From NCBI GenBank assembly GCA_965232515.1, contig CBDDPY010000002.1, positions 5,632,001 to 5,696,000 of the forward strand: a DNA stretch of 64,000 nt. Reading direction: 5' to 3'. The position numbers were made by a program, and so were the translations under genes. The stretch comes from Alphaproteobacteria bacterium. GTDB taxonomy: Bacteria > Pseudomonadota > Alphaproteobacteria > GCA-2731375. Shown in pieces: positions 44,556 to 59,339 of the stretch (positions are counted from its first letter, which is position 1; every line of letters starts with the position of its first letter). A model generated the notes under the pieces. That model was not told the DNA's origin and did no database searches. It worked only from the letters and a program-made list of their open reading frames with translations.

Positions 44556-44559
44556 GACG

Positions 44560-44982
44560 CTATCGGCGCAAACCAAGCGCCCGAACAAGCATCAAACGCA
44601 TTTCGCTTACGTGCTCACAGGCTTGCATGAGTTCCCGGCATACTTCTGGCGTCACAGGCAAAGCGCCGGAGTTTGCGGCCTTGGCGAGTTGATTGAGGTT
44701 GCTTGAAAGGCGGGATTGCCCGAGCATCCCCAACGCCTTTGCGAGCGATTTCGCATCGGCCACCGGGCGGGCGTTTCTTGATCGCAATGATCCATCGTCT
44801 TCAAAAAGGAGGCTACGGACATGCACGCCGAGCGGCTTGCCTTTGGCGTCCTCTTGGAGCCGTTTACGCTGCTGGTTCGTTAGGCGAATCGAGAACGGGT
44901 AGGTCTGTTTCCTCTTTTGTGCGGGGCTGGGCGCGCACGCATGCGCCCACACCCCGGCGAGGCCGGGTGTGTCCTTCGGCAT
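44560..44982 (-). CDS. mobC: MobC-like relaxosome accessory protein
   Basis: RHH-like PFSIRLT..R.RL and SNLNQLAKAANSG; directly upstream of the relaxase. Confidence 0.82.
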   Translation of the reverse strand: MPKDTPGLAGVWAHACAPSPAQKRKQTYPFSIRLTNQQRKRLQEDAKGKPLGVHVRSLLFEDDGSLRSRNARPVADAKSLAKALGMLGQSRLSSNLNQLAKAANSGALPVTPEVCRELMQACEHVSEMRLMLVRALGLRR

Positions 44983-45235: not shown

Positions 45236-46459
45236 TCAGGGCGCGTGCTTGACGACCGTTCCGCCCTGGACGATGAGCTTCAGGTTCGCTTCCGGCGCCT
45301 GCAGCACGCCGAGATCGTCGAGCGGGTTGCCGTCGACGGCCAGCAGGTCGGCGCGGGCGCCGTCGCGCACGACTCCGAACTCGCCCGCCCGGCCGAAGGC
45401 TTGCGCCGCGGTGCAGGTGGCGCTGCGCAGGATGTCGGCATTGCTGACGATCCCCGCGCGCAGCGAGAACTCGTTCAGCTGGTGGACGTGCATGTCGCCC
45501 AGCAGATCCGTCCCGTAGACCAGCGGCACCCCGGCGCGATAGGCCATTTCGAGGGCCCCGGCGCCGGCGTCCAGCACCTCGTAGACCGTGTCGACCATCG
45601 ACTTCGGCATGCCGGCGGCGACGCCTTCGCTGGCGAGCGCGTGATAGGTCGAGAGCGTGGGCACGAGGTAGCCGCCATGCGTCAGGAACGCTGCGCAGGT
45701 CGACTCCTCCAACAGGTTCCCGTGCTCGATCGTGCGCACCCCGCATTCCAGCAGCCGCTCGATCGCGCGGGCGGTATAGGCGTGCGCCATGACGTAGATA
45801 TTGGCGGCGTCCGCCTCCTCGACGACGGCGCGGATCTCCTCCAGCGAAAACTGCGTGCTGTCGATGCGGTCGGTCGGCGAGGAGACGCCGCCCGAGGCCA
45901 TGATCTTGATCTGTGTCGCGCCCTTGCGGATTTCGTCGCGCGCGGCCCGGCGGACTTCGCTGACGCCATCGCAGATGCGCCCCAGTCCGGCGCAGCAGAA
46001 GCAGCCTTCGAACGTGTCCTGGCCGGGACTGCGCATGTCGCCGTGGCCGCCGGTCTGGGACAGCGCCTTGCCGGCGAACAGGATGCGCGGGCCGCGCAAC
46101 CAGCCCTCCTCGACCGCCCGCGCCAGGCCGTGGTCGGCGCCGCCGGCGTCGCGCACGGTGGTGAAGCCGCGCATCAGCATGTCTTCCAGGATCTGTCCCG
46201 CCCGCGCGGTCACGTAGGTCGGCGACCAGGTGTTCAGCAGCGGAAAGTTCGGCGTCGCGGCGGTAACGTGCACATGCCCGTCGACCAGGCCCGGCATCAG
46301 GGTGAGGCCCTTGAGGTCGATCGTCTCGGCGGCGGCCGCCGCCGCGCCGGTATCGATGTCGACGATACGTCCGCCGTCGATATGCACCGTCCGCTCACCG
46401 ATCAACTCGCCCGCCTCGACGTCGAGCACGTTCGCGTTCAGCAGCGCCAGTTCACTCAT
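45236..46459 (-). CDS. Metal-dependent amidohydrolase (Xaa-Pro dipeptidase/carboxypeptidase-like)
   Basis: MPGLVDGHVH, GFTTVRDAGG, KIMASGG, AHAY, IEHG, YGTDL. Confidence 0.92.
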   Translation of the reverse strand: MSELALLNANVLDVEAGELIGERTVHIDGGRIVDIDTGAAAAAAETIDLKGLTLMPGLVDGHVHVTAATPNFPLLNTWSPTYVTARAGQILEDMLMRGFTTVRDAGGADHGLARAVEEGWLRGPRILFAGKALSQTGGHGDMRSPGQDTFEGCFCCAGLGRICDGVSEVRRAARDEIRKGATQIKIMASGGVSSPTDRIDSTQFSLEEIRAVVEEADAANIYVMAHAYTARAIERLLECGVRTIEHGNLLEESTCAAFLTHGGYLVPTLSTYHALASEGVAAGMPKSMVDTVYEVLDAGAGALEMAYRAGVPLVYGTDLLGDMHVHQLNEFSLRAGIVSNADILRSATCTAAQAFGRAGEFGVVRDGARADLLAVDGNPLDDLGVLQAPEANLKLIVQGGTVVKHAP

Positions 46460-46667
46460 GGCCTCTTTATGCCCCATGCTTGCGTGATGCCGGGCGATCG
46501 CGGGCGCGTCGCCATGTCTCGTCCCGCCCCGTTGTCCCCTGCGTCGTGCAGGGCGCCGCGGCGCGAACCGGCTCAGCGGTAAGGAAAGCAGCAACCGTTC
46601 GTCAGGTTAGCAAGGCCGGTTCGACCGCGTCCAGCGGCGCCGCACCGCCGTCGGCCGGCGGCAGACG

Positions 46668-47801
46668 CTATTCCCGCGTAGCGCCGGGAGGCGGCCTTCG
46701 GCCGAGCAGGCCGGCGGCGATCCCGACGGACATTTGCAGGTGGCGGCCGAGGTCCGGCTTCACCAGCATGCCGGCGGCAAGCCAGAAGAGATAGCGGATC
46801 GTACTGCCGGGGTAGAGGCGGAAGAACCAGAGGCGATTCTGCGCGCTATGCGCGGGCGCGGCGAGCAGACGCAGGGCGTGGGGGGCGTCGTCGACCCTGA
46901 TCAGGTCCCGATGCTTGTCGATCGCGTGCGCGAGGCGGCGACAGCGGTCGCGACAGGCGAAGACCAGCAACAGGATCGCCAGCATGTTGACCGAGACGGC
47001 CAGCAGGTTTTCGCGGCGGCGCGCCTCGAAAAAGGCCGGCCAGTCGATGTCGTCTTCCAGGCAGGTGACGACCGTATGGAGGTCGGCCAGGCTCTTGGCC
47101 CGGACCTTTCCGAGCTCGATGTCGGCGATCAACGACACGATCAGCAGCAGCAGGGAATCCTCGTCCGACAGTACGGCGTAACTGTCGCCGGAAATCGGAA
47201 ACCGTCGCGTCGCCGCCCAGATCCGCGTCAGATCGATGTCGTAGGCCGGGCGCGTGCGGAAACACCAATGCAGGTCGACGGCGACGTCCGCTCGCCGCAA
47301 GCCGATCGCGTGCACGAACCGGCTCGTCAGCATCGCGGGCAGGCGCGGACGACCGTCGTCGTCATAGCCCAATGCCCGCATCGCCGCCCGCAGACGCGGC
47401 AGATCCTCGGGCCGGACCAGAATGTCGAGATCGCGCAGCCGCCGCGCGCCGATATCGCCATAGAAATGCAGGGCGAAGTGGAAGCCCTTGAGCAGGATGA
47501 TATCGATGTCGTGGGTCGCCGCCGTTCGGTGCAGCTCATGCAGTGCGTCGCCCAGCATCCCGGACCGGTCCCGGTCGTTGGCGGCGAAGCCGAGCAGCGC
47601 CATGACCAGCCAGGCGGGCAGGCGGTCCGATGCCTGGCTTCGCTCAATCCGCCAACGCAGATACGCGCCGAGATCGTGGGTCGCGAGGAAGCTGAGAAAC
47701 GCTTCGGACTGGAAGTCCGGCGCCGTGAGCGCGGTCGCGACCGCGTCCCAGTCGCCGCGCGCCGCCGCCGCGATGATCGGAAAATGCGCTTGCCAGGTCA
47801 T
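46668..47801 (-). CDS. Nucleotidyltransferase family protein (NTP_transf_5-like)
   Basis: ILLKG..A..FYGDIGARRLRDLDILV, VDLHW, LADL motifs. Confidence 0.85.
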   Translation of the reverse strand: MTWQAHFPIIAAAARGDWDAVATALTAPDFQSEAFLSFLATHDLGAYLRWRIERSQASDRLPAWLVMALLGFAANDRDRSGMLGDALHELHRTAATHDIDIILLKGFHFALHFYGDIGARRLRDLDILVRPEDLPRLRAAMRALGYDDDGRPRLPAMLTSRFVHAIGLRRADVAVDLHWCFRTRPAYDIDLTRIWAATRRFPISGDSYAVLSDEDSLLLLIVSLIADIELGKVRAKSLADLHTVVTCLEDDIDWPAFFEARRRENLLAVSVNMLAILLLVFACRDRCRRLAHAIDKHRDLIRVDDAPHALRLLAAPAHSAQNRLWFFRLYPGSTIRYLFWLAAGMLVKPDLGRHLQMSVGIAAGLLGRRPPPGATRE

Positions 47802-47831
47802 GGGATCGCCGCGCGCCGCGGTTTCGGCGGG

Positions 47832-48932
47832 CTAGGTCGGGCTCGCGTTTGACGCGGCCTCGGCCAGGATGCGTTTTGCCCGGATCTCCAGGTCGTCCGG
47901 ATCGGCCGCCTCCGCCTGCCGCAGCCATGGAAGTGCGCGCCCGGGCTCGCCCTGGCGCAGCCAGCAAACGCCCATCAGACCCCAGGCCAGCGCGCCGAAC
48001 AGGCGGCGGTCGTAGCCCAGCTCGCTTCGCGCCGGCCCGTCGGGTCCGAACGCCAGCAGCCGGTCGAGGCAGGCCCGCGCCGCGGAAAACCGCCCGGCCG
48101 CCTCATGATGGCGCGCGGTCCACCATAGCACCGACGGGTCGTCGCCGTGGCGGGCGGCGGCTTCGTCCAGCAGCACCGCGGCGTCGGCGAGCGCGACGTC
48201 GGCATCTGATGTGTGCAGGTCCAGCAGATCGGCGTAGATCAGGGCATCGCCGGGCCGGGGATCGCGGCGTCGCAGCACGGCCAGGCCCTGCCGCCAGGCG
48301 CGCTCGGCCGCGGCCGCGTCGCCCAGGCCCCGCTCGGCTTCGCCGAGCGCGTGCCAGAGATAGATCCGCGCCGGATCGGCCTCGACGGCGCGGCGCAGCA
48401 GTGGGTGGTTGCGCCGGTGCTTGGCGTCCAGATTGCCCTCGTAGCCAAGGTGCTCGATGGCCATCGGCGCATCGGTGATCACCGCGTCTTCGGCGGCTGT
48501 GATCCGCTGCAGGTCCGGTACCACGGTTTCGTGGATGACGCCGCGAAACCGGATGTCCGGCCGATTGCGGAACAGGCGGTGCTCGCGATAGGGCGTCAGG
48601 CGGCTGTTGGCGCGAAAGCGGACGCGCGCGGCGACCGCCGATCCATCCCGCAGCACCGGATCGAGCCGGCCATTCAGCGAGACCCGTTCATCGGCGTCGA
48701 TGTAGAGAATCCAATCGCCCGTCGCATGGGCGAGCGCGGTGTTGCGGGCGCGCGAAAAATCATCGCGCCAGGGTTCGCGCACCAGGCGCGCGCCGTGCGC
48801 AACCGCGATGTCGGGTGTACGGTCCCGCGACCCGGTATCGACCACCACGACCTCATCGGCCACGGCGGCGATACTGTCCAGGCAGGGGCCCAGATGTTCT
48901 TCCTCATCGCGGACGATAAGGGCCGCGCTCAG
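47832..48932 (-). CDS. Glycosyltransferase family 2 with TPR repeats (start non-canonical or frameshifted)
   Basis: LSAALIVRDEE..L..CL, VVDTGS.D.T, W.DDFS.ARN, IDADE, IHE, HLGY, then TPR-like helices. Confidence 0.88.
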   Translation of the reverse strand: MSAALIVRDEEEHLGPCLDSIAAVADEVVVVDTGSRDRTPDIAVAHGARLVREPWRDDFSRARNTALAHATGDWILYIDADERVSLNGRLDPVLRDGSAVAARVRFRANSRLTPYREHRLFRNRPDIRFRGVIHETVVPDLQRITAAEDAVITDAPMAIEHLGYEGNLDAKHRRNHPLLRRAVEADPARIYLWHALGEAERGLGDAAAAERAWRQGLAVLRRRDPRPGDALIYADLLDLHTSDADVALADAAVLLDEAAARHGDDPSVLWWTARHHEAAGRFSAARACLDRLLAFGPDGPARSELGYDRRLFGALAWGLMGVCWLRQGEPGRALPWLRQAEAADPDDLEIRAKRILAEAASNASPT

Positions 48933-48976
48933 CCGTCCGTTTTGGCCGGCCGCGGCGGTGTCACGGTGTTGCGGGC

Positions 48977-49144
48977 TTACGACTGGTTGGAAGCCTGCGC
49001 CGCCGCCGGACGTGACATCAGTCCGGACATGGTGAACGTGGCAACGGCCGGCGCCACGAATCCGGCCTTTGCGACTTTCCGCATGAACTCGCGGCGAGCC
49101 GGTGACACGCGTGAAATCACGTCTTCCCGTTTTACATCAGACAT
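48977..49144 (-). CDS. Unannotated 55-aa precursor-like peptide MSDVKREDVISRVSPARREFMRKVAKAGFVAPAVATFTMSGLMSRPAAAQASNQS
   Basis: Translated by hand (below the ORF-track cut-off); AAGGGGG RBS; twin-Arg RREFM motif, FVAP motif, hydrophobic core, AxA site; fills the gap between co-oriented genes. Confidence 0.78.
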   Translation of the reverse strand: MSDVKREDVISRVSPARREFMRKVAKAGFVAPAVATFTMSGLMSRPAAAQASNQS

Positions 49145-49218
49145 AGGACATGCCCCCTTTACGAGCGGTCAGACAATACAGAAGGCTAATATTACGAGTT
49201 TTCGGCAGATTGCTCAAG

Positions 49219-50040
49219 TCAGCCGGCGAACGCGGCCTCCAGTTGCGGCACGGCGTCGGCCACGTCGCCCAACACCAGTTCGTAGCCGCCGGCCGCGCCG
49301 AGCCGGCTTGCCGATGCGACCAGCACGTCCCCCGCTTCGCCCCAGCCCAGCCAGCTTTCCAGCAGGCGCTGAATGATCTGGAAGGGCGGACAGTGCGTCA
49401 GGCTGGTGGCGCCGCCATGATTGGGCGATATCGAGATCACGGCATCGACCGGACCGAGATCGATGCGCCAGTCGAACCCCTGGACGCCGGGATCGAGGGC
49501 GGAGATGTCGACCTCGCCCATCGACTTGCGCGGCAGGCTGTCGAGCGGCCGCCGCAGTTCCGGCACGTGGCGCTCGGCACCCGGTTTCAGGTGAAAGTTG
49601 CGCGGAAACGCCATGGTCCGGCCATCCCGCTCGAGCACGAACTCGTCGCCGTCGACGCGATGGCCGGCATACAGCAGGCGCGTCGCGAGCGTCGTCTTGC
49701 CCGCGCCCTTGTCGCCCAGAAACAGCAATCGGCGGCCGTTGACGGTCGCGAGCCCGCCGTGCAGCAGGGTCCAGCCGGCGAGGACATAGCGCTCCATGGT
49801 GCGGCGGTGAACGCGGCCGTAGACCACATGCAGCACGTCCTGTGCGGTCGCGACGTCGGCCAGCGGGTCGCCTTCCTCGAAGATCTCGTAAGGACCGATG
49901 CCCCGCACCTCGTAGCGCAGCGTCTTGCGTACGGATACCGGTTGGCGGGCCTTGGTGGCGAGATAGCGGAACGTGTCGGCGAGATCAGGATCCCGGTGCC
50001 CGATCTCGACGCGGCAGCTTAGGATCTGGAACGAGATCAA
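49219..50040 (-). CDS. HPr kinase-like P-loop kinase
   Basis: LLHGG..V.G..LLFLGDKGAGKTTL..L..GH...GDE motif set. Confidence 0.82.
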   Translation of the reverse strand: MISFQILSCRVEIGHRDPDLADTFRYLATKARQPVSVRKTLRYEVRGIGPYEIFEEGDPLADVATAQDVLHVVYGRVHRRTMERYVLAGWTLLHGGLATVNGRRLLFLGDKGAGKTTLATRLLYAGHRVDGDEFVLERDGRTMAFPRNFHLKPGAERHVPELRRPLDSLPRKSMGEVDISALDPGVQGFDWRIDLGPVDAVISISPNHGGATSLTHCPPFQIIQRLLESWLGWGEAGDVLVASASRLGAAGGYELVLGDVADAVPQLEAAFAG

Positions 50041-50044
50041 CCCG

Positions 50045-50326
50045 CTACGCGGCCGAAGTAACGACCAGCACGCCTTCTTCCACGAGCTGCTTCAGCCCGG
50101 TCTCGACGTCGTCCAACGGCGGCGCGTCGAGCGAATGCAGATCGGCCATCGCCGCCGCCAGCTCGGCGGCGCTCGACGCACCGTCACAGAGCTCGAACAG
50201 CGCGCCGGCGGAGAAGTTAAGATGGTGCACGCGGTCGTTCGCCGGATTGAAGACGACGAGCCCATCCTGGGTCTCGTGCACCTCCAGGTCGGCGGCGCGG
50301 GTGTATTTCGGCGCGTCGGCGGACAT
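50045..50326 (-). CDS. PqqD family protein / stand-alone RiPP recognition element
   Basis: 93 aa: DGLVVFNP..DRVHHLN.SA..LFELCDG..S..EL..DV..GL.QL.EEGVL. Confidence 0.88.
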   Translation of the reverse strand: MSADAPKYTRAADLEVHETQDGLVVFNPANDRVHHLNFSAGALFELCDGASSAAELAAAMADLHSLDAPPLDDVETGLKQLVEEGVLVVTSAA

Positions 50327-50351
50327 GGGCGGTTTACTAGCACAGGAATCG

Positions 50352-51605
50352 CTAATTTGCATCCGGCCCGGCCGCCAGGTCGGCGATGGCGGCGGCGACC
50401 GTTTCGGCGTCGTGGTGGTCCGCGACAAAGCGGGCGGCGTTGGCCGACAGCCGGCCGGCAAGGCTGGCGTCCGTCAGGATCCGCCCAGCGGCGTCCACCA
50501 GGGCCGCGTCGTCGTCCGCGATCAACAACTGATCGCCGTCGCGGATACCGAGACCGGCGGCGGCGGCCGGCGTTGCCGCCACCGGCAGGCCGTGCGCGAA
50601 GGCCTCGAGGATCTTCAAACGGCTGCCGCCACCGGCGCGCAGCGGCACCAGGGCCAGATCGGCGCGCCGGTAAAACGGCGTCAGATCGGGGATGAAGCCA
50701 TGGACCTGGACCCCGGCATGCCCGGCCAGCCGCGTCGCGCCTGCCCCGGCGCCGATGATGTGCAGTTCCGCGCCCCGACAACGGCGGCGCAGGGCGGGCA
50801 GGATGGCGGTGGCGAGGCGCTCGGCCGCATCCAGATTGGGCAGATAGTCAAGGTTGCCAATGAACAGCACGGATGGCGCTCCGTCACCGGGCCGCTGTTC
50901 TTCTGCGCCGATTGCCGTCCCGACAGCATTGGGCACCGTCGTCACAGCGGCCAGGCCGTGACGCCGGCGCAGGGCATCCGACTCCAGATCGCTGGCGGTC
51001 GCCACATGATCGAACCAGCCGAGCGTGTGCTTGGCCAACCTGGCATAGGCATCGGCTTCCGCGGTCGTGCGCGCCGCGGCATCGGCCTCGCCGCGTTGCC
51101 GATGCAGGTCGGCGATGGCGGTCAGGGTTGCTGCGTCATCCTCATCCAGGTCGAGGATCAGGCGGGCGCCGCACCCACGGTACGGCAACACGGTGCCGGC
51201 GATGTAGAGTCGCATGACCCAGACCAGATCGAAGGTCTCGCCGGCGAGTTCGCGGGAGACGGCATCGGGGCAGGCAAGCCGGGCGCGGTTGGGCAGCGGC
51301 TGTGTCGCCGCGACGACGGCGCGGCCGCTCGGGTCGGCGAGCCAGCGGCGCGCGGCGTCCGTCGGCGCCGGCAGCGGCACGAAGAACGCGCGCGCCGAAT
51401 GCTCGGCGGCCCAGCCCATGGACGCCGCATCGGCGCCCGGATCGGAAACGGGCAGCACGGCCGTGGTGAGGTTGTATGCCCGCGACAGGCCCTGTAGCGT
51501 AACGGCGGCCCGCATGGCGAGACCGTTCCCGGTCGGCGCCGGGGCGATGGGGCAGATCAGGAGCGCGCGCGGCCGCGACGACGGCGAACAGTCACGCTGA
51601 ACCAT
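50352..51605 (-). CDS. Glycosyltransferase family 4
   Basis: VPNAV, FIGNLDYLPNLDA, VPLRAGGGSRLKILEAFAHGLPV. Confidence 0.9.
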   Translation of the reverse strand: MVQRDCSPSSRPRALLICPIAPAPTGNGLAMRAAVTLQGLSRAYNLTTAVLPVSDPGADAASMGWAAEHSARAFFVPLPAPTDAARRWLADPSGRAVVAATQPLPNRARLACPDAVSRELAGETFDLVWVMRLYIAGTVLPYRGCGARLILDLDEDDAATLTAIADLHRQRGEADAAARTTAEADAYARLAKHTLGWFDHVATASDLESDALRRRHGLAAVTTVPNAVGTAIGAEEQRPGDGAPSVLFIGNLDYLPNLDAAERLATAILPALRRRCRGAELHIIGAGAGATRLAGHAGVQVHGFIPDLTPFYRRADLALVPLRAGGGSRLKILEAFAHGLPVAATPAAAAGLGIRDGDQLLIADDDAALVDAAGRILTDASLAGRLSANAARFVADHHDAETVAAAIADLAAGPDAN

Positions 51606-52455
51606 GAGTCGAATACCCCGGATCGCCCATTTCGTTTTCGGCCTGCGCGAGCAGCTCGAGCCGTTCCACCTGCTGCATTATCTGGCCATCGAGACCTGCC
51701 GGCGCATCCTAAAGCCCGAGGCCATCTACCTCCACTACCACCATCTGCCGTTCGGCGTCTTCTGGGACGAGATTCGTCCGCATCTGACGCTCCGCCGTGT
51801 CGGCCTGGCGGACGAGGTGTTGAACGCCGACTACGACGAACGGCTGGTGCCCAAGGCGTACCGTTACGCCCACCACGCCGATTTCGTGCGGCTGGAAGCG
51901 CTGGTCGAGTACGGCGGCGTCTATGCCGACATCGATACTGTCTTCGTGCGGCCGCTGCCGGACGCGCTCTATGACGAGAAGTTCGTGATCGGGCGCGAGT
52001 CCGATGTGCCGGACGAACTTACCGGCGCGGTGCGCCCGTCATTGTGCAACGCGCTGCTGATGGCCGAACCGGGCTCGGTCTTTGCCCGTACCTGGCTCGA
52101 CCGCATGGGAGCGGCGATTAACGGCACCTGGAGCAATCACTCGGGCTTCCTGGCCGAGGCCTTGAGCGAAGAGATGCCCGACGAGGTTCGGGTCGAGCCC
52201 GAGGAGTCGTTCTTCGCCGTCCCGTGCACGCCGGAAGGTCTGGAGTCGCTGCTGGGCGAGGGGCCGGTGGACCTGACGCGCAGCTATTCGTTGCATCTTT
52301 GGGCGCATGTCTGGTGGAGCTTCGACCGCCGGGACTTCACCGCGCGGCATGCCGGCGAGATGACCCTGTCGCGGTTGCGGCGGTCGGCCTCGCCGCTGGC
52401 CGAGCTCGTCCGTCCCTATCTGCCCGATATCGATCTCGACGACGTGCGAACCTGA
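51604..52455 (+). CDS. DXD-motif glycosyltransferase (GT32-like)
   Basis: IPRIAHFVF, AHHADFVRL..L.EYGGVYADID, HLW. Confidence 0.87.
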   Translation: MSRIPRIAHFVFGLREQLEPFHLLHYLAIETCRRILKPEAIYLHYHHLPFGVFWDEIRPHLTLRRVGLADEVLNADYDERLVPKAYRYAHHADFVRLEALVEYGGVYADIDTVFVRPLPDALYDEKFVIGRESDVPDELTGAVRPSLCNALLMAEPGSVFARTWLDRMGAAINGTWSNHSGFLAEALSEEMPDEVRVEPEESFFAVPCTPEGLESLLGEGPVDLTRSYSLHLWAHVWWSFDRRDFTARHAGEMTLSRLRRSASPLAELVRPYLPDIDLDDVRT

Positions 52456-52458
52456 ACC

Positions 52459-53655
52459 ATGCCGCAACCGCACGGTCTGAACGTGGTGACGCTGACGCCC
52501 GGCTGCGGCTACGGCGATGCCGGCAGTCAGTATGTCGCGGGGCTGCACACGCTCGGTGTGCCGGTGACCTGGACGCCGACGGTCGCGAACACGGCGGACA
52601 TTCTGCCGTTCGACGATTGCCGCCGCGATCTGCCGAACCCGATCGCCGCCGATCTTACCGCGCTGTGGCGGCGGCCGCTCGATTGCGACGCGATCCTGGT
52701 CAACATCCCGCCGTTCCGTTGGCAGCGCTATTGGCGCCGGGCGGCGCCGGACCTGCGGCCGTTCACCTATATCACCTGGGAGGTCGAGCGTGTGCCCGAT
52801 GACTGGCCGCCGGCGCTCAACCTCTATGACCGCGTCTTCGTGCCGTCGATCTTCAACCGGCAGGCGCTCGTCGCCGGCGGCGTGACGACGGCGGTCGATG
52901 TGGTGCCGCACGTCGCGCGGGACGCGGTCCCGGTTCACGGTGGCCCGCCTTGGGGCAACGTGGCCGACGAGGATTTCGTCTTCTACACGATGGGCATGTG
53001 GACCGCGCGCAAGGCGATGGAGGAGACAATCCGCGCGTACCTGGAGGCGTTCGGCCGCGACGACCCCGTCGCGTTGATCGTCAAGACCGAGGCCATCGAT
53101 CAGATGGCGTACTACGCATTGCCGGCCGACTGGCGCGACAGCGCGCCATCCCAGGTGGCGATGGTCTGGTGGCGCGTGGCGCAGATCCTTGCCGAGTATC
53201 CCGATGCGGCGAAGGTGCATCTGGTCGCGGAACCGGTGTCGCCGCACGAGGTCGATCGTCTGCACACGCGGGGCGACTGTTTCGTGAGTCTGGCGCGGAG
53301 CGAGGGCTGGGGTCTGGGGCCGTTCGACGCGGCGCTGTTCGGCAATCCGGTCATCGTCACCGGCTGGGGCGGACAGCTCGATTATCTCGGTGCCAACGAT
53401 CCACTGTTGGTCCGCTATGAACTGGAGCCGACCTCGGCCTCGGCGCCGGACGGCTATTATCTTCGCGCCGATGACGTCCGCTGGGCGCGCGCCGACCGGC
53501 AACATGCCGGTGCGCTTATGCGCGAGGTGTTCGAGACCAGGGACCGGGCCGGCGCCGCCGCGCGCGAGCGTCAGTTCGAGCTTTGCCGGCGCTACTCGGC
53601 CGACCGCGTCTGCCGGCGCCTTGCCGACCTCATGGGTTACGAGGTCGCCGGATGA
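52459..53655 (+). CDS. GT-B (GT4-like) glycosyltransferase, paralog 1
   Basis: GYG, TWE, VPS.FN, RK, DCFVSL.RSEGWGL..FDA..GNPVIVTGWGG. Confidence 0.88.
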   Translation: MPQPHGLNVVTLTPGCGYGDAGSQYVAGLHTLGVPVTWTPTVANTADILPFDDCRRDLPNPIAADLTALWRRPLDCDAILVNIPPFRWQRYWRRAAPDLRPFTYITWEVERVPDDWPPALNLYDRVFVPSIFNRQALVAGGVTTAVDVVPHVARDAVPVHGGPPWGNVADEDFVFYTMGMWTARKAMEETIRAYLEAFGRDDPVALIVKTEAIDQMAYYALPADWRDSAPSQVAMVWWRVAQILAEYPDAAKVHLVAEPVSPHEVDRLHTRGDCFVSLARSEGWGLGPFDAALFGNPVIVTGWGGQLDYLGANDPLLVRYELEPTSASAPDGYYLRADDVRWARADRQHAGALMREVFETRDRAGAAARERQFELCRRYSADRVCRRLADLMGYEVAG

Positions 53656-54305
53656 CCGCCGCCACGCAGCCGTTGTTGGCGCCGCGCATCGCCGCCTTCA
53701 TCTCGATCCCGAGAAACGCCAGCCACACGGTCCGAGAGGTCCTTGAGCTGGGCCCCAACCGGGACTTCGAGACCACCGCCTCGCCGGTGATCCACGAGAA
53801 CCATCAGCGAGGCGCGGTGCTTGCCGCGCGCTACGATCTCGAGCCGCTGTTCGTCTTCTGCTTTGTCCGCCATCCCTATCTGCGTTGCCTCTCCTGGTTC
53901 CGCTTTCACCGTGACGTGGAGCCCTATCGACGGTTCAGCTTCGAGCAATGGGTGGCGGCCGGCATGCCGCATCATTGGGGGCGGCAGAACCAGACCGACT
54001 ATGCGGCGAGCGGCGCGACGCCACTGCTGCAGACGACATTCGTTGCCGGTTGCCGGGTTGACTTCGTCGGCCGGTTCGAGACGTTCGACCGGGATCTGCG
54101 GCACGTCGTGGCGGCACTCAACAGCCGTGCCGAAGCCGCCGGGCTTGCGGCGCGATATCGGTATCGGCAGGTTCGCCTCAACAGCACGGTTCCGTGGCCA
54201 CCGCCCGAACGGCTGCTGACGGCGCCGGTGCGTAAAACAATTCAACATTTGCTGGCGGCGGACTTCGAACGCTTCGGCTTCCCTGTCGATACGGTGGTCG
54301 GATGA
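53652..54305 (+). CDS. Sulfotransferase family 2 protein
   Basis: FISIPRNASHT (5'-PSB loop), FVRHPY.R.LSW (3'-PB), VGRFE, DF..FGF. Confidence 0.8.
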   Translation: MTAATQPLLAPRIAAFISIPRNASHTVREVLELGPNRDFETTASPVIHENHQRGAVLAARYDLEPLFVFCFVRHPYLRCLSWFRFHRDVEPYRRFSFEQWVAAGMPHHWGRQNQTDYAASGATPLLQTTFVAGCRVDFVGRFETFDRDLRHVVAALNSRAEAAGLAARYRYRQVRLNSTVPWPPPERLLTAPVRKTIQHLLAADFERFGFPVDTVVG

Positions 54306-55510
54306 CGGCGACGGGCCGGCCGCCGCGCGGCCTCAAGGTCGTGACACTGACTCCGGGCGGCGGCTATGGCGATGCCGGCTGCCAATATGTCGCGGGCTTG
54401 CATGCGCTCGGGCTTCCCGTTACCTGGACGCCGACCATCCTCGACGCCACCGAACGGCAGGCCGCTGCCCGCAACAAACGCAACCTGCAGAGCGCGATCG
54501 GGCAGGATCTGCTGGCGCTCTGGGATCGGCCGCTCGACTGCGATGCGATCCTGGTGCATATGCCGCCTGTTCAATGGCACGATCATTGGCGGCAGGCGGC
54601 GCCGGATCTGCGGCCTTTCACCTGTATCGCCTGGGAGGTCGCACAGATCCCCGACGACTGGCTTCCGGCGTTGAACCTCTATGAGCGGATTTTCGTGCCG
54701 TCGACGTTCACACGACAGGCGCTTGCCGCAACGGACATCGAGGCGGCAATCGACGTCGTGCCGCACATTGCGCGCGATGTGACGCCGCAATCCGGCGGCG
54801 CGCCCTGGGGCGAGGTGGCCGACGACGATTTCGTCTTCTACGCCATCGGCAGCTGGACCACGCGCAAGGCGATGGAAGAAACGGTCCGCGCCTACCTCGA
54901 CGCCTTCACCGGCGACGACAAGGTCGCGCTGATCGTCAAGACCGGGCCGGTCGACAAGATCGCGCTCTACGCCCTGCCGGACGTACAGCGGCAGAGCGCC
55001 CCACCGCATCATGCGATGGTCTGGTGGCGGCTGGCGCAGATCCTTGCCGACTATGACAATCCGGCCAAGGTGCATCTGATCGCGGAACGGCTGCCCGCCC
55101 GCGAGATCGACCGGCTGCACACGCGCGGCGACTGTTTCGTCAGCCTGTCGCGCAGCGAGGGCTGGGGGCTGGGGTCGTTCGACGCCGTTCTGTTCGGCAA
55201 CCCGGTCATCGTGACGGGCTGGGGCGGGCACCTGGACTATCTGGGCGCGGACTATCCCCTGTTGGTCGGTCATGTTCTGGAAGCGACGTCAAGGGCCGCA
55301 TCGGACGGCTTTTTCAAGGCGGTGCTGGATGCCTGTTGGGCACGCGCCGACCGGGATCATGCCAGCGAGCTCATGCGCCGGGTTTTCGAGGATCGGGCCT
55401 CCGCGCGCGCGATCGCCCGCGAATTGCAGCCGCAGCTTCGGACCCGCTACAGCGCGGACAGGGTTTGCCGGCGTCTCGCCGCGCTGATGGGATTCGAGGT
55501 CGGCGCATGA
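54302..55510 (+). CDS. GT-B (GT4-like) glycosyltransferase, paralog 2
   Basis: Same motifs as, and colinear with, 52459-53655. Confidence 0.88.
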   Translation: MTATGRPPRGLKVVTLTPGGGYGDAGCQYVAGLHALGLPVTWTPTILDATERQAAARNKRNLQSAIGQDLLALWDRPLDCDAILVHMPPVQWHDHWRQAAPDLRPFTCIAWEVAQIPDDWLPALNLYERIFVPSTFTRQALAATDIEAAIDVVPHIARDVTPQSGGAPWGEVADDDFVFYAIGSWTTRKAMEETVRAYLDAFTGDDKVALIVKTGPVDKIALYALPDVQRQSAPPHHAMVWWRLAQILADYDNPAKVHLIAERLPAREIDRLHTRGDCFVSLSRSEGWGLGSFDAVLFGNPVIVTGWGGHLDYLGADYPLLVGHVLEATSRAASDGFFKAVLDACWARADRDHASELMRRVFEDRASARAIARELQPQLRTRYSADRVCRRLAALMGFEVGA

Positions 55511-56505
55511 CGGACAGTCCGATGCCGGCCATTCCCCAGGACCTTAAGTCGACGCGGCTGCTGGTGCTGGCCTGGACCGATCATTTCTTCGGCGCGGACT
55601 ATCTCGATGCGAAGCGTATCGCGAACCCGAACGGGCCCGACATCGAGCTCAGCTTCACCTCCGACCGCGACCGGCTGGACGAGGTCGACGCCGTCTGGTT
55701 CCACGGCCCGTCAATCACCGACCTGCCGCCGCGCAAGCGGCAGCCCTGGGTGCTGATGAGCATGGAGAGCGACGTCAACTATCCGGCCCTGAAGAATCCG
55801 CTGGTGCTGCCTCGGTTCGATCTCTTGATGACCTATCGGCTCGATGCCGACGTGCCGTGCATCTACCCGAACTGGCGGCACTACGGCACGTTTCTCGACG
55901 CCCCGCCGCGACGACGGGGACCGGCCGCGGGCGCGCTGGCCTGCTACATCGCGTCGAACCCGGTCGCGCACCGCGACGACTATGCCGCGGAATTGATGCG
56001 GCACGTGCCGGTCGACAGCCTCGGGTCCTGCCTGCGCAACGCCCGCATCGACGGCTTCGTCGACGGCGGCTGGGCCGACGGCGCCTGGGTCAGCCTGATG
56101 TCGGTGCTGCCGCGCTACAAGTTCTATCTGGCGTTCGAGAACTCGCTCACCACGGACTACGTTACCGAGCGGGTGTTTCACGCGCTGGCCAGCGGGGTGG
56201 TGCCGGTCTACCGCGGTGCCGGCAACGTGCGCGATTTCATGCCCGCCGATGACACCATTATCGACACGGCCGACTTCGCTTCTCCGCGCGAGCTGGCGGA
56301 CTATCTGCGCTACCTGGACCAGGACGATGACGCCTATGCCAAGCATCTGCGCTGGAAGCAGGACGGCTATTCCGACCGGTTCAAGGCTCTGGTCGATCTG
56401 GGCTCGGTCGATCCGCAACACCGAATGGCGGTGAAGCTGGCGCATGGCTGCGATCGTGACTGCCTTTGTGGCGGCCGGATGCGGGCGCCCGGTGTGCTGC
56501 CGTGA
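55507..56505 (+). CDS. GT10 alpha-1,3-fucosyltransferase-like protein
   Basis: SMES, MTYRLDAD, YKFYLAFENS..DYVTER..AL..G.VPVY.G, LA.YL.YLD. Confidence 0.9.
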   Translation: MTDSPMPAIPQDLKSTRLLVLAWTDHFFGADYLDAKRIANPNGPDIELSFTSDRDRLDEVDAVWFHGPSITDLPPRKRQPWVLMSMESDVNYPALKNPLVLPRFDLLMTYRLDADVPCIYPNWRHYGTFLDAPPRRRGPAAGALACYIASNPVAHRDDYAAELMRHVPVDSLGSCLRNARIDGFVDGGWADGAWVSLMSVLPRYKFYLAFENSLTTDYVTERVFHALASGVVPVYRGAGNVRDFMPADDTIIDTADFASPRELADYLRYLDQDDDAYAKHLRWKQDGYSDRFKALVDLGSVDPQHRMAVKLAHGCDRDCLCGGRMRAPGVLP

Positions 56506-57284
56506 CGACGGTCCTGGTCAACTATGCGACGGACGACTTCGCGGACTACCAGGCGATCAACAGCCTGACCGGCCGGCTGTTCGGTTTCGACGATTGCCGC
56601 AGCTACGGACCGGACGATCTCGCCCCCGACTTCGCGCGCCGGAACGCCGCAACGCTTGCCGCCGGGCGCGGCGCCGGCTATTGGCTCTGGAAGCCTTACA
56701 TCGTGGCGCGGACGTTGGCGGAACTCGCCGACGGCGATCTGCTGTTCTATGCCGACGCCGCCATGCACTTCGTCAATCCGGTTGCGCCGTTGGTCGATCT
56801 GCTGGACCGGCACGCTCTGGACCTGTTGATCCTGGGCGAGAGCTTCGCAGAGGCGCAGTACACCAAGCGTGACGCCTTTGTCCTGATGCGGGCCGACACG
56901 CCCCAATTTGTCGGCACGCCGCAGCGTTTCGCCAGCTGCTTCATGCTGCGCAAGACGGCCTGGGCCGATGATTTCGCCGCGCGCTACCTCGCCTTCGCCG
57001 AAGACGATCGTATCCTGACCGACCGGGCGAATACCTGCGGCCTGCCCGACTACTCCGACTTCATCGCCCACCGGCATGACCAGTCTATCTTCAGTCTGCT
57101 GAGCAAGCAGGCCGACGTGCCGGTCGTCGCCGCCGACATGATCGCCGGGGGCTTGCCGGATCGCGCGACGCAGATCATCAACCACACCCGCGCGCATCTC
57201 GCGCCAAAGGACATCGTCAAACGCCTGCTGGTGCAGGGCGTGCTGTCGGTCAGCGATCTGGCGGAACTGGCGGCGCCGGCATGA
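56502..57284 (+). CDS. Putative GT-A glycosyltransferase
   Basis: RGAGYWLWKPYI, YADA (DxD-like), HRHDQS motifs. Confidence 0.7.
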   Translation: MTTVLVNYATDDFADYQAINSLTGRLFGFDDCRSYGPDDLAPDFARRNAATLAAGRGAGYWLWKPYIVARTLAELADGDLLFYADAAMHFVNPVAPLVDLLDRHALDLLILGESFAEAQYTKRDAFVLMRADTPQFVGTPQRFASCFMLRKTAWADDFAARYLAFAEDDRILTDRANTCGLPDYSDFIAHRHDQSIFSLLSKQADVPVVAADMIAGGLPDRATQIINHTRAHLAPKDIVKRLLVQGVLSVSDLAELAAPA

Positions 57285-58227
57285 CGTCCGCCAGGGCCGC
57301 GCGCTTGACGCAGACCCAGGGCGTGATGCCGGGCTTGATCCAGTGGCTGTCAGCCGTGCAGCGCTCGAGCCTGCCGCCGCGCCCCTTGATGTAGCCGTTG
57401 TAGTTGAAAGCGATGGCCTCAGGGTTGCGTGTCGCGGCATCCGCGATGGCGGCATGGTCGCCTGGCGCGTATTCCACGTAATCGATGTCGAAGCCGAAGA
57501 TGTCGTGGTTCTCGAACACGGCGTAGCCGTCGATGGGCGCGGGCGGTGGCGGATGCTGAATGTTCCAGATGTTGGTGTGGTGGTGGATGAAATAGAGCAG
57601 GCGCTCCGACCGGATCGCATCGATGGACTTTCCGCCAAGCGCCGGCAGTTGCCCGAGCACATTCCGGCCGCAGACCTTGTCGAGACCGATGATATTGAAC
57701 CGGAAGATGTTCTCGAACAGTCGCACCTGTTTGGTCAGCATATCCGGGCCGGTATTGTTGAAGACATCGGCGAAGGTGACGTCGCGCTCGATCAGGTGCG
57801 ACAGCCGCTTCGTGACATAGCCGAAAAAGGCATGGCCCGGCGGCGCCGCCATCAGGGCGTTGGCGATGATCGTGTCGTCGATGGTCGGCGCGGCCAGCAG
57901 CGACAGATGCACGTCGCCCTCGGCGAGCAGCGGATCGATCGGCTTCAGGCACTCCATGTCGAGGTCGATATAGACGCCGCCATAGTGCAGCAGCATGAAG
58001 TAGCGGACGGCGTCGACCCGCTCGATGTTGTGCTTGTAGCCGTCATAGGTCGGCAGGAACCAGGGATAGTGCTCGGCGATCAGCCGACGGTTGTCCGCGT
58101 CGGTCCAGAGCCAGTGTTGCCAGTCCGGATGGTGCGTCCGCACGGTCGCGCGATGGCGCGCGTAGTCGTCCGGCAGCGTCTCGGTCTTCCAGGTCTGGTG
58201 AATGATCCGGGGGATCGTCTGTTGCAT
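57250..58227 (-). CDS. GT32 (OCH1-like) glycosyltransferase with an extra C-terminal domain
   Basis: IPRIIHQTWKT, WTD, D.VRYF.L..YGGVYIDLD, NALMA, TGP. Confidence 0.88.
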   Translation of the reverse strand: MQQTIPRIIHQTWKTETLPDDYARHRATVRTHHPDWQHWLWTDADNRRLIAEHYPWFLPTYDGYKHNIERVDAVRYFMLLHYGGVYIDLDMECLKPIDPLLAEGDVHLSLLAAPTIDDTIIANALMAAPPGHAFFGYVTKRLSHLIERDVTFADVFNNTGPDMLTKQVRLFENIFRFNIIGLDKVCGRNVLGQLPALGGKSIDAIRSERLLYFIHHHTNIWNIQHPPPPAPIDGYAVFENHDIFGFDIDYVEYAPGDHAAIADAATRNPEAIAFNYNGYIKGRGGRLERCTADSHWIKPGITPWVCVKRAALADVMPAPPVPPDR

Positions 58228-58358
58228 GCCGTCGATCTCGTGCGGCGGTCGGCATTGACCGTCGTTCCGGGCATGTCATACCGTCGGCGCGCGCCGCCGT
58301 TCAAGGAGAGTTGACGGCGAGCGATAACGCTGTTCGCGTGTGCGTGGCAGGAGTGGGG

Positions 58359-59339
58359 ATGCGGGAAGGCAAGATCGTCGTCTGCGGTGCGGGCGGCTTT
58401 ATCGGCGGACACTTGGTGAACGATCTGATCCGCCGGGGCTGCACGGACCTCCGGGCGGTCGATGTGAAGCCATTCGACGGCTGGTTTCAGGTCTCGGATG
58501 CGGCTGAAAACATCAGACTCGATCTGCGGCGGCGCGAGGCCTGCCTCGCGGCTCTGGCGGACGCGCGGGTCGTCTACAACCTGGCCGCCGATATGGGCGG
58601 CATTGGCTTCATCGAGTTCAATCGCGCCCAATGCATGCTGAACGTGCTGATCAACAGCCATCTGCTGGAGGCGGCGCAGGAGCTGGGCGTCGCGCGCTAT
58701 TTCTTCACCTCGTCCGCTTGCGCCTACAACGTCGAACTGCAGCGCGATCCCGATGTGACGGCCCTGAAGGAAGCGGATGCTTATCCGGCCATGCCGGAGG
58801 ACGGTTACGGCTGGGAAAAGCTGTTCAGCGAACGCATGTGTCGGCACTTCACGGAAGATTTCGGCCTGCCCACCCGCGTCGCCCGGCTTCACAACATCTA
58901 TGGTCCCTACGGCACTTTTGACGGCGGTCGGGAGAAGGCGCCGGCGGCGATCTGCCGCAAGGTCGCCGAAGCAAAACTGTCGGGGCGGCACGAGATCGAA
59001 ATCTGGGGCACGGGCGAGCAGACCCGCAGCTTCACGAACATCGACGACTGCCTCCACGGCATGCACCTGATCATGGAATGCGATGTGGCCGAGCCGCTGA
59101 ACCTCGGCAGCAACGAGTGTGTCAGCATCAACCAACTGGTCGACATGGTCGAAGACATCGCCGGCGTCCGGCTGGCGCGGCGTTACGATCCGACCGCGCC
59201 GGCCGGCGTCAACGGCCGCAACAGCGACAACAGCCGCATCCAGGCGGTGCTTGGCTGGCAGCCGAGCACGCCGCTTGCCGCTGGCCTGGAGGCGACTTAC
59301 CGCTGGATCTACGACCAGATGGCAGGCAGTTCGGCGTAG
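58359..59339 (+). CDS. NAD-dependent epimerase, GDP-mannose 3,5-epimerase-like
   Basis: GAGGFIG, NLAADMGG.GFI, SSACAY, PEDGYGWEK, HNIYGP.GT.DGGREKAPAA.CRK, GV.GRNSDN. Confidence 0.87.
   Translation: MREGKIVVCGAGGFIGGHLVNDLIRRGCTDLRAVDVKPFDGWFQVSDAAENIRLDLRRREACLAALADARVVYNLAADMGGIGFIEFNRAQCMLNVLINSHLLEAAQELGVARYFFTSSACAYNVELQRDPDVTALKEADAYPAMPEDGYGWEKLFSERMCRHFTEDFGLPTRVARLHNIYGPYGTFDGGREKAPAAICRKVAEAKLSGRHEIEIWGTGEQTRSFTNIDDCLHGMHLIMECDVAEPLNLGSNECVSINQLVDMVEDIAGVRLARRYDPTAPAGVNGRNSDNSRIQAVLGWQPSTPLAAGLEATYRWIYDQMAGSSA

Follow-up and report, generated by a model that had tools for sequence, protein, structure and literature searches.

A conserved 55-residue peptide with a twin-arginine-type leader as the putative precursor of a proposed peptide glycosylation cassette in an alphaproteobacterium and other bacteria

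We describe a small gene cassette in a 64,000-nucleotide stretch of DNA, called the window throughout, from an alphaproteobacterium (GTDB lineage GCA-2731375; GenBank assembly GCA_965232515.1, contig CBDDPY010000002.1). An open reading frame (ORF) of 55 amino acids (aa) is accompanied there by genes for a PqqD-family protein, a kinase related to HPr kinase (HprK), a nucleotidyltransferase, and glycosyltransferases (GT) of the GT2 and GT4 types. The original prediction, made from the sequence alone, had reported five co-oriented genes, all of which are present on the minus strand between 46668 and 50326. Together with a GT4 gene directly upstream, the minus-strand order of the six genes is GT4, PqqD, kinase, 55-aa ORF, GT2-TPR, and NTP_transf_5, with the following coordinates and family matches (scores are set against model cut-offs):

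50352..51605, minus strand: GT4-type glycosyltransferase, directly upstream of the PqqD gene (Glyco_trans_1_4, 84 bits; TIGR03087, 113 bits against 316.65)
50045..50326, minus strand: PqqD-family protein, presumed recognition element (RRE) for a RiPP, a peptide that is made by ribosomes and modified after translation (PF05402, 36.0 bits against 23.4; TIGR04353, 29.2 against 35)
49219..50040, minus strand: HprK-related P-loop kinase (Hpr_kinase_C, 20.9 bits against 33.3; TIGR04352, 22.8 against 200)
48977..49144, minus strand: putative 55-aa precursor peptide (conserved ORF with a Shine-Dalgarno-like run)
47832..~48932, minus strand: GT2-TPR glycosyltransferase (Glycos_transf_2, 63.9 bits, with several TPR families)
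46668..47801, minus strand: NTP_transf_5 nucleotidyltransferase (PF14907, 133.4 bits against 31.2)

The 55-aa ORF is a real and widely conserved gene. Its product, MSDVKREDVISRVSPARREFMRKVAKAGFVAPAVATFTMSGLMSRPAAAQASNQS, is encoded 8 nt downstream of a Shine-Dalgarno-like AAGGGGG run and reads as first described, with ARREFMRK, GFVAPAV in a hydrophobic stretch, PAAA, and a six-residue tail, QASNQS, that ends in serine. A word-based search retrieved nine homologs (length 54-62 aa, identity 54-64%), of which the two named ones are annotated as "hypothetical protein". A profile built from 20 family members and searched against 1.84 billion clustered proteins (50% clustering) matched 698 representatives at E ≤ 1e-3, including 23 at E ≤ 1e-10; the matches were reduced to 248 unique members for analysis, 156 of which were analyzed as small members. 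Library scans found no Pfam or NCBIfam model that covers the family. In a strain of about 97.5% identity, two differences fall in the peptide ORF, both at synonymous third positions (in the rows shown), and seven in the 113-nt spacer that follows it. One RNA-seq library from such a strain contains a 2,360-nt contig that spans GT2-TPR, the peptide ORF, the kinase, and PqqD and reaches into GT4; as RNA libraries can contain DNA, this is no more than a weak indication of transcription. A six-frame search of the genome found exactly two family members, the window peptide and a 59-aa paralog, each adjoining a cassette of PqqD, HprK, and NTP_transf_5 genes. The claim of a hidden gene therefore holds, on the strength of the homologs, the profile matches, the paralog, and a synteny that crosses phyla. 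The paralog's cassette (G000:C2:4147000-4153000; L015, 6892-11398) consists of an NTP_transf_5 gene on the plus strand, the paralog, a GMC-family oxidoreductase gene, and a gene whose 405-aa product is a fusion of PqqD and HprK; it is devoid of GT2-TPR and GT4. The paralog tail ends in ...VPYGQNGQV, and a close relative (P0041) was found elsewhere.

Family members share a leader with the consensus L-x-x-VD-x-x-[RK]R-x-F-L-[RK]-K, followed by G-x-A-F-x-x-P-V-V-A-S-F-S-M-x-G-L and then by A-x-A, which stands at the expected place in 135 of the 156 small members. The arginine pair is RR in 148 of the 248 members and KR in 100, and no other pair occurs. The second arginine and the proline are invariant in alignments A2 and A3 (118 sequences in A3); within F-x-x-P, P32 is invariant and F29 is retained in at least 90% of the aligned sequences. 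RRxF and F-x-x-P are thus the most conserved features of the family, as had been anticipated, whereas the terminal serine that was expected alongside them is not a conserved feature, since serine is the C-terminal residue in only 37/156 small members. Judged from the alignments, the conserved site is instead a [S/G]-N-x-[S/T] motif after A-x-A. An asparagine lies 9-20 residues past the FSM motif in 142/156 small members (90±5.4 in shuffled tails, maximum 106), and an N-x-S/T sequon is found in 104/156 (43.1±5.4 in shuffled tails, maximum 58 in 300), with the reversed control motif [ST]-x-N in 42/156; the sequon stands at the extreme C-terminus in 10 of the 104. Some tails are built from repeated units, including GNMT four to five times (P0047), PNQT (P0088 and P0149), SPNTN, and, without Ser or Thr, FPNQH four times (P0104). 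Comparison within tandem arrays gives identities of 76-95% for the leaders and of 28-56% for the tails.

An identical leader type also heads longer proteins with various passenger domains. Pentapeptide repeats were confirmed in both of the two proteins tested and Peptidase_S74 after a short core in all three tested; further passengers are DUF11 repeats, a PEP-CTERM end (P0076, 26.3 bits against a cut-off of 20.7), and IPTL-CTERM-like tails. Such passengers have an extracytoplasmic character, which is an argument for a genuine export signal in the leader. In three loci (L047, 1854-2261; L043, 593-1099; L089, 447-884), the leader is followed by a sequon core of about 10 residues and then by Peptidase_S74, the self-cleaving "chaperone of endosialidase", an arrangement that points to C-terminal trimming of the glycopeptide by autoproteolysis in such precursors. 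The median tail is 29 aa at the 21 kinase-bearing loci and 150 aa at the 11 kinase-less loci, a contrast that, given the non-independence of the loci, is no more than descriptive; the long substrates of kinase-less loci are rich in N-L-S/T.

The gene order of the window recurs well outside its own lineage. A search of the genome collection with the peptide alone returned eight loci, of which seven are true, all of them in metagenome-assembled genomes (MAGs): two in Acidobacteriota, one in Competibacteraceae, one in Halieaceae, two in other Pseudomonadota, and one in Bradyrhizobium. The eighth, in an archaeal MAG (L024), was rejected as a false positive, the match lying in an alternative frame of another gene and the cassette genes being absent. 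In all seven true loci, the genes for GT4, PqqD, kinase, one or more peptides, and GT2-TPR are arranged as in the window, and most of the loci also carry the divergent glycosyltransferase block described below; tandem peptide genes number two in the Halieaceae locus and three to four in the Bradyrhizobium locus. A metagenome search, likewise with the peptide only but with a broader subfamily (alignment A4, narrower than A3), gave 132 relatives, and 80 loci were kept and scored with our own hidden Markov models (HMMs). At least one of PqqD, kinase, and GT2-TPR stands at the expected place in 73/80. Where at least 1.4 kb is available upstream, PqqD is found in 31/35 loci and the kinase in 22/35; where at least 0.7 kb is available downstream, GT2-TPR is found in 40/56; two to five tandem peptide genes occur in 10/80. 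Among the external loci of at least 5 kb (n=30, four near-identical pairs included), GT4 is present in 23, PqqD in 27, the kinase in 18, GT2-TPR in 24, and NTP_transf_5, on either strand, in 14. Other recurrent neighbors are further glycosyltransferases, LicD, and sugar-nucleotide enzymes; the annotated recurrent neighbor clusters include no transporter, peptidase, exosortase, or polysaccharide exporter. Conservation of the peptide beside PqqD, a kinase, and a glycosyltransferase in other genomes, which had been proposed as a check, is thus seen in genome and metagenome loci alike.

Closer to home the system is rare. The window-type kinase was found at E ≤ 1e-10 in none of 32 other genomes of the same order; in a phylum sample (16 candidates scored per genome), 2 of 400 other genomes gave weak peptide matches, both inside long ORFs; and tblastn of the peptide against plasmids found no match. 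This patchy occurrence, combined with the 54-73% identity between the window's whole twelve-gene set and that of the Competibacteraceae MAG (L020), suggests horizontal spread. In a gammaproteobacterial MAG (L022, 7067-7913 and 8221-9346), the kinase and GT2-TPR are each spread over two overlapping frames, which could come from frameshifts or assembly errors. In the kinase-less pentapeptide-repeat loci L030 (440-1576) and L031 (5876-7012), a domain of some 290 aa is fused to the C-terminus of PqqD; by eye, it presumably resembles FkbM-type methyltransferases.

Among the enzymes, the PqqD family profile (A5) has as its best solved relative the lasso-peptide RRE TfuB1 (6jx3_B, E 3e-4). Lasso RREs recognize a YxxP motif, and such motifs tolerate hydrophobic substitutions, as described in a section of PMC12710340; the F-x-x-P of the family would fit this recognition type. 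The window kinase scores below the model thresholds, yet its profile aligns with the genome's bona fide TIGR04352 member at 97.4% probability (hhalign, E 1.1e-11, 229 columns), for which reason we regard it as HprK-related; its sequence suggests a clade that is sister to "HprK-related kinase A". In the kinase alignment (A7), no variation is seen in the Walker A motif GDKGAGKTT or in G131-D132-E133. In the NTP_transf_5 alignment (A6), K105, G106, D124, D126, H178, D215, and D240 are invariant, a D-x-D (D124, D126) being among them; a sequence search found no solved relative, and a mention of PF14907 in PMC8942020 added no information. The likeness of this protein to PsmN of the pseudomycoidin system is by annotation only. 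In that system, according to the portion of PMC6993621 that treats it, the HprK-type kinase PsmK phosphorylates the C-terminal serine of the precursor, and placement of a hexose on the phosphate depends on PsmN, the "uncharacterized NTP transferase". In L023 (9462-11744), L044 (4799-6778), and L019 (2280-4658), NTP_transf_5 forms the C-terminal part of a 660-792-aa protein, apparently fused in L019 to a GT1-like enzyme.

The nearest solved relatives of GT2-TPR by sequence are GmaR (22ao, 1.3e-20), 7msk (1.6e-13), and SunS (7msp/7msn, ~5e-13), and its best NCBIfam match is TIGR04195, the model for SunS, at 46.6 bits against a cut-off of 350. SunS is curated in that model as a peptide S-glycosyltransferase, and GmaR is the Listeria flagellin O-GlcNAc transferase. 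This kinship places GT2-TPR among cytoplasmic protein and peptide glycosyltransferases. The genome encodes no STT3 oligosaccharyltransferase and has three GT41 genes, none of them linked to the cluster.

The leader appears to have twin-arginine anatomy, with an RR/KR motif, a hydrophobic region, and A-x-A. The consensus of twin-arginine translocation (Tat) signals is S-R-R-x-F-L-K, and the R-R-x-F-L-R-K of the family is close to it. With 20.5 bits against 16.7, the leader of the paralog scores above the cut-off of TIGR01409, a curated Tat model, and larger relatives fall just under the threshold of the Pfam TAT_signal model (PF10518; 15.5-16.4 against 22.7 bits). When homolog P0008 was used as the protein-atlas query in place of the window peptide, the nearest Pfam-bearing clusters were Tat-signal families (scores 0.87-0.89), which serve as leads only. 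The genome encodes TatC. Bulky RiPP modifications are described as poor substrates for the general secretory (Sec) pathway in a passage of PMC11626156.

The cassette has several features of lasso-peptide biosynthesis, namely a PqqD-like B1 RRE (PF05402 above cut-off) and a YxxP-type leader motif, and the layout of RRE-dependent RiPP genes in general, in which a short precursor, conserved in its leader and variable in its core, lies beside an RRE and modifying enzymes. It is nevertheless not a lasso system, in agreement with the original prediction. The genome, which is 96% complete, has no match to Transglut_core3 (PF13471, the B2 leader peptidase); its ten Asn_synthase matches all lie beyond about 70 kb from its three PqqD genes; and five of its Asn synthases, used as tblastn queries, found no match in 87 peptide-bearing loci (449,184 nt), so that no cyclase accompanies any cassette. 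The possibility that a cognate lasso cyclase elsewhere in the genome accounts for the PqqD protein and kinase, raised from the start as a way in which the proposal could fail, thus found no candidate near any PqqD gene. It would be appealing in that paeninodin- and pseudomycoidin-type clusters likewise contain a PqqD-type protein, a kinase, and a nucleotidyltransferase, as set out in part of PMC6993621, and in that the genome has several Asn-synthase homologs; with these absences and with a conserved adjacent peptide of the cassette's own, the notion that the three enzymes tailor a lasso peptide encoded elsewhere is largely refuted and extremely improbable. The likeness to paeninodin and pseudomycoidin lies in the trio of a PqqD-type RRE, an HprK-related kinase (PadeK or PsmK there), and an "uncharacterized nucleotidyltransferase", as named in the same part of PMC6993621, as well as in the proximity of the RRE to the lasso B1 protein TfuB1 and the YxxP-like F-x-x-P of the leader. 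The differences are that cyclase and B2 peptidase are missing here, that the leader resembles a signal peptide, that the conserved site is N-x-S/T rather than a C-terminal Ser, and that GT2-TPR and GT4 form the core, with kinase and NTP_transf_5 optional.

A second close relative is the HPr-rel-A system (TIGR04352 with the PqqD-family peptide chaperone TIGR04353), which shares PqqD, an HprK-related kinase, and NTP_transf_5 with the cassette and which, to our knowledge, is curated but uncharacterized and has no substrate assigned. The window proteins fall under both of its cut-offs (22.8 against 200; 29.2 against 35), and by sequence their cassette appears to be its sister. The genome also holds a third cassette, at G000:C2:6231000-6234600 (L016, 7480-10569), that is a bona fide HPr-rel-A system (TIGR04352, 365.2 against 200; TIGR04353, 55.6 against 35; NTP_transf_5). 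Unlike the window cassette, this copy lacks GT2-TPR and GT4 and is not adjoined by any member of the peptide family; the gene directly upstream of it encodes a 218-aa protein whose signal-like N-terminus contains RRR and which falls outside the peptide family.

Beyond the GT4 gene, the window carries a largely divergent block of genes for glycan synthesis, with counterparts in the related loci L017 to L022:

51604..52455, plus strand: DXD-motif glycosyltransferase (Gly_transf_sug), divergent (57-73% identity to the L017-L022 counterparts)
52459..53655, plus strand: GT1-like glycosyltransferase (weak Pfam match; 42-62% identity to the L017-L022 counterparts)
53583..54305, plus strand: sulfotransferase (Sulfotransfer_2, 26.7 bits; 56% identity to the L020 counterpart)
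54302..55510, plus strand: second GT1/GT4-like glycosyltransferase (syntenic counterparts in L017, L020, and L022)
55336..56505, plus strand: GT10 fucosyltransferase-like enzyme (Glyco_transf_10, 116 bits; 63% identity to the L020 counterpart)
57250..58227, minus strand: second DXD-motif glycosyltransferase (Gly_transf_sug, 80 bits; 70% identity to the L020 counterpart)
58311..59339, plus strand: NAD-dependent sugar epimerase/dehydratase (Epimerase, 133.6 bits; 71% identity to the L020 counterpart)

Just past these genes lies one for a V/A-type ATPase catalytic subunit of 788 aa (59345-61711, minus strand; ATP-synt_ab, 222 bits). On the other side, an amidohydrolase gene (45236-46594) was excluded from the cassette, as its counterpart occurs in none of the related loci; beyond it are genes for a MobA/VirD2-type relaxase (PF03432, 50.5 bits) and MobC (43254-44982). 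The GC content drops from about 0.68 to about 0.54 at this side of the cluster, with a break near 45 kb at which neither a tRNA nor a meaningful Rfam match was found; the relaxase, MobC, and the GC drop probably mark the edge of an integrated mobile element. A promoter scan of 46500-51800 found no sigma-70-like site, and a TTGAGC-17-TAATAT spotted by eye, with just 8 matching positions out of 12, is not put forward as a promoter.

On the reading that we favor and consider reasonably probable, the 55-aa ORF encodes the precursor in an undescribed RRE-guided peptide glycosylation pathway, in which the peptide would be modified before its export, probably by Tat. Its first ~49 residues would serve both as a twin-arginine-type export signal, comprising [RK]R-x-F-L-[RK]-K, a moderately hydrophobic stretch, and an A-x-A signal-peptidase site, and as a recognition leader, in that F-x-x-P-x-V within the hydrophobic stretch would be bound in the cytoplasm by PqqD, acting as a lasso-B1-type recognition element. 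While the peptide is held in this way, the short tail would be modified at [S/G]-N-x-[S/T], with the SunS/GmaR-type GT2-TPR and the adjacent GT4 attaching the sugar. Where the two enzymes are present, the HprK-related kinase may phosphorylate a tail Ser or Thr and NTP_transf_5 may add a sugar to the phosphate, comparable to PsmK and PsmN. In the window's subfamily, six further glycosyltransferases, the sulfotransferase, and the epimerase would then extend the glycan. The bulky product would exit by Tat, and signal peptidase would free a glycopeptide of 5-20 residues, which in some relatives may be handed on by way of a PEP-CTERM or IPTL-CTERM tail or trimmed by the self-cleaving Peptidase_S74. 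Export by some route is likely, and Tat as that route is held at slightly better than an even chance. The original prediction was therefore right in outline, as a non-lasso, RRE-guided system with a conserved Tat-like peptide as substrate, and is corrected in its emphasis on a terminal serine and in the central place that it gave to the kinase and NTP_transf_5.

Several characterized systems resemble parts of this proposal. Glycocins (sublancin with SunS, and thurandacin) and Listeria GmaR share the architecture of a GT2 domain followed by a helical TPR-type domain, along with cytoplasmic glycosylation of a ribosomal peptide or protein; with the window GT2-TPR far below the SunS equivalog cut-off (46.6 against 350), the kinship is at the domain level only. 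The cores of glycocins are Cys-rich helix-loop-helix structures, which are not seen in the 5-20-residue cores here; the examined neighborhoods have no double-glycine leader and no ABC transporter/peptidase, and RRE dependence is, as far as we know, not a glycocin feature. HMW1C/NGT enzymes glycosylate N-x-S/T sites of large adhesins in the cytoplasm before Sec export, with no RRE and no dedicated leader; the type of site is the same, but those enzymes belong to GT41 and the one here to GT2. Tat proofreading chaperones such as TorD and DmsD are small cytoplasmic proteins that bind a twin-arginine signal and retain the substrate until it is mature. The parallel with PqqD is an analogy only, as the fold here is unrelated (a PqqD/RRE winged helix) and maturation would consist of glycosylation rather than cofactor insertion. 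In bufferins, which are MNIO-modified RiPPs, the leader of the precursor is a Sec export signal that is cleaved by signal peptidase, as stated in part of PMC11626156, and an RRE-type partner, DUF2063, is involved, as mentioned in PMC12710340. They differ in using Sec where a Tat-like signal is seen here, in carrying a thiooxazole where a sugar or phosphate is proposed here, and in that modification can proceed there without the signal peptide, while the signal here contains the best-conserved portion of the leader.

A number of observations weigh against the favored reading. For export, the window peptide matches no NCBIfam or Pfam Tat model, the 50 matches to TIGR01409 that the genome gives at E ≤ 1 do not include it, and KR, the pair in 100 of 248 members, is unusual for Tat signals. 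For the kinase, the likeness to HPr kinase itself is confined to the P-loop region. For the genetic unit, the transcript evidence is weak, as noted, and 7/80 metagenome loci show the peptide without a recognized neighbor, two of them (L034 and L062) with more than 2 kb on each side. GT2-TPR poses a further difficulty: ATG, GTG, and TTG are all absent upstream of the GTG at 48863 (48864-48976), the conserved N-terminal strand (LSAALIVRDEEEHL) is encoded upstream of that codon, and homologs begin 3-5 codons ahead of the equivalent strand. Either translation starts at the CTG at 48932-48930, or this copy is N-terminally truncated and starts at GTG 48863; with no canonical start codon, it may be impaired. 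As to the phosphate-dependent branch, the kinase is absent from 13/35 adequately flanked loci and NTP_transf_5 from 16/30 external loci, so this branch is not essential to the family; given the constant core of GT4, PqqD, peptide, and GT2-TPR, glycosylation of the SunS/GmaR type looks primary and phospho-glycosylation an add-on. The scheme first put forward, phosphorylation followed by glycosylation of the phosphate, thus survives as a frequent but optional branch, the constant enzymes being the two glycosyltransferases together with PqqD.

The identity of the modified residue leads to the first rival. The N-x-S/T pattern may fit modification either of Asn or of the Ser/Thr at +2, and the Asn, as the best-conserved residue of the tail, points to Asn modification or to a recognition role for Asn. 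The system could accordingly be one of general leader-directed N-glycosylation, in which the Asn of N-x-S/T is the acceptor, any leader-bearing protein from the 55-aa peptides to 200-aa pentapeptide-repeat proteins is a client, and the kinase and NTP_transf_5 are accessory or regulatory rather than peptide-modifying. Better conservation of Asn (142/156) than of the Ser/Thr at +2, the FPNQH repeats devoid of Ser/Thr in P0104, and the long N-L-S/T-rich substrates at kinase-less loci (median tail 150 against 29 aa) all speak in its favor, and since the genome has no STT3, any N-glycosylation would be cytoplasmic. However, the solved SunS/GmaR-type relatives of GT2-TPR modify Cys, Ser, or Thr and not Asn, a point that also counts against Asn as acceptor within the favored pathway; known cytoplasmic N-glycosyltransferases belong to GT41, whose three genes in this genome are far from the cluster, and we know of no GT2-type Asn-glycosyltransferase. 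HprK homologs of lasso clusters, moreover, do phosphorylate their precursor, as reported in a part of PMC6993621, and on balance we judge general N-glycosylation unlikely. We give about the same low standing to the view that biosynthesis proceeds as proposed but with a leader that acts as a Sec signal, or as a purely cytoplasmic RiPP leader served by an unlinked protease and an unlinked transporter, rather than as a Tat signal. The failure of the window peptide in curated Tat models and the KR pair in 40% of members would agree with it, as would bufferins, whose precursors show in the relevant part of PMC11626156 that RiPPs can use Sec signals; the hydrophobic stretch is also unusually conserved for a signal peptide, as expected if RRE recognition constrains it. 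Against this stand the near-Tat consensus, the second Arg invariant in A2 and A3, the pair that is always RR or KR in 248 members, and the Tat-model scores of the paralog and the larger relatives together with the atlas leads to Tat families. A glycan built by up to eight transferases would, besides, be unlikely to pass through SecY, as we infer from part of PMC11626156.

A structural role is distinctly less probable again. The peptide might be a small membrane subunit, anchor, or regulator of an exopolysaccharide glycosyltransferase complex, with PqqD only inserting or stabilizing it, and the single hydrophobic stretch, the glycosyltransferase-rich surroundings, a GT4 that resembles glycosyltransferases of PEP-CTERM/XrtA systems (below cut-off, TIGR03087 113 against 316.65), and an exosortase in the genome would suit such a role. 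Yet the combination of conserved leaders with divergent tails in tandem arrays is what substrates typically show; the conserved A-x-A ahead of a sequon, together with the unrelated passengers fused to the leader, fits a signal or leader rather than a structural subunit; GT2-TPR falls in a protein- and peptide-glycosylating group; and no polysaccharide exporter is found among the annotated recurrent neighbor clusters. On a further idea, which we hold to be doubtful, the minimal peptides would be glycan carriers: a sulfated oligosaccharide would be built in the cytoplasm on a ribosomal primer rather than on a polyprenyl lipid, PqqD would hold the primer by its Tat signal until the glycan is complete, Tat would export the glycan as the cargo of a 5-residue mature peptide, and relatives with PEP-CTERM or IPTL-CTERM tails would pass the glycopeptide to exosortase.

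In the literature that was searched in full text, a scope outside which most subscription journals and supplements lie, neither a cyclase-less system of PqqD, HprK, NTP_transf_5, and GT2-TPR nor a twin-arginine-type RiPP leader is described, and the same holds for natural Tat export of cytoplasmically glycosylated peptides. If the glycosylation pathway proposed here is correct, it would constitute a widespread, undescribed RiPP-like class, with 698 representatives, seven genome loci in Acidobacteriota and in gamma- and alphaproteobacterial MAGs, and 132 metagenome relatives. In this class, one and the same sequence would be both export signal and recognition leader, and a single sugar-attachment site could suffice as the "core". 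Cassettes of HprK-related kinase, PqqD, and NTP_transf_5 of the window type would gain a function and a link to PEP-CTERM/exosortase biology. The pathway would also offer a compact, leader-addressable module of cytoplasmic glycosylation for glycoengineering, and the carriage of heavily glycosylated peptides by Tat would become directly testable. Should the minimal peptides prove to be glycan carriers, they would represent a fourth, lipid-independent route of bacterial glycan export and a natural non-protein payload of the Tat system.

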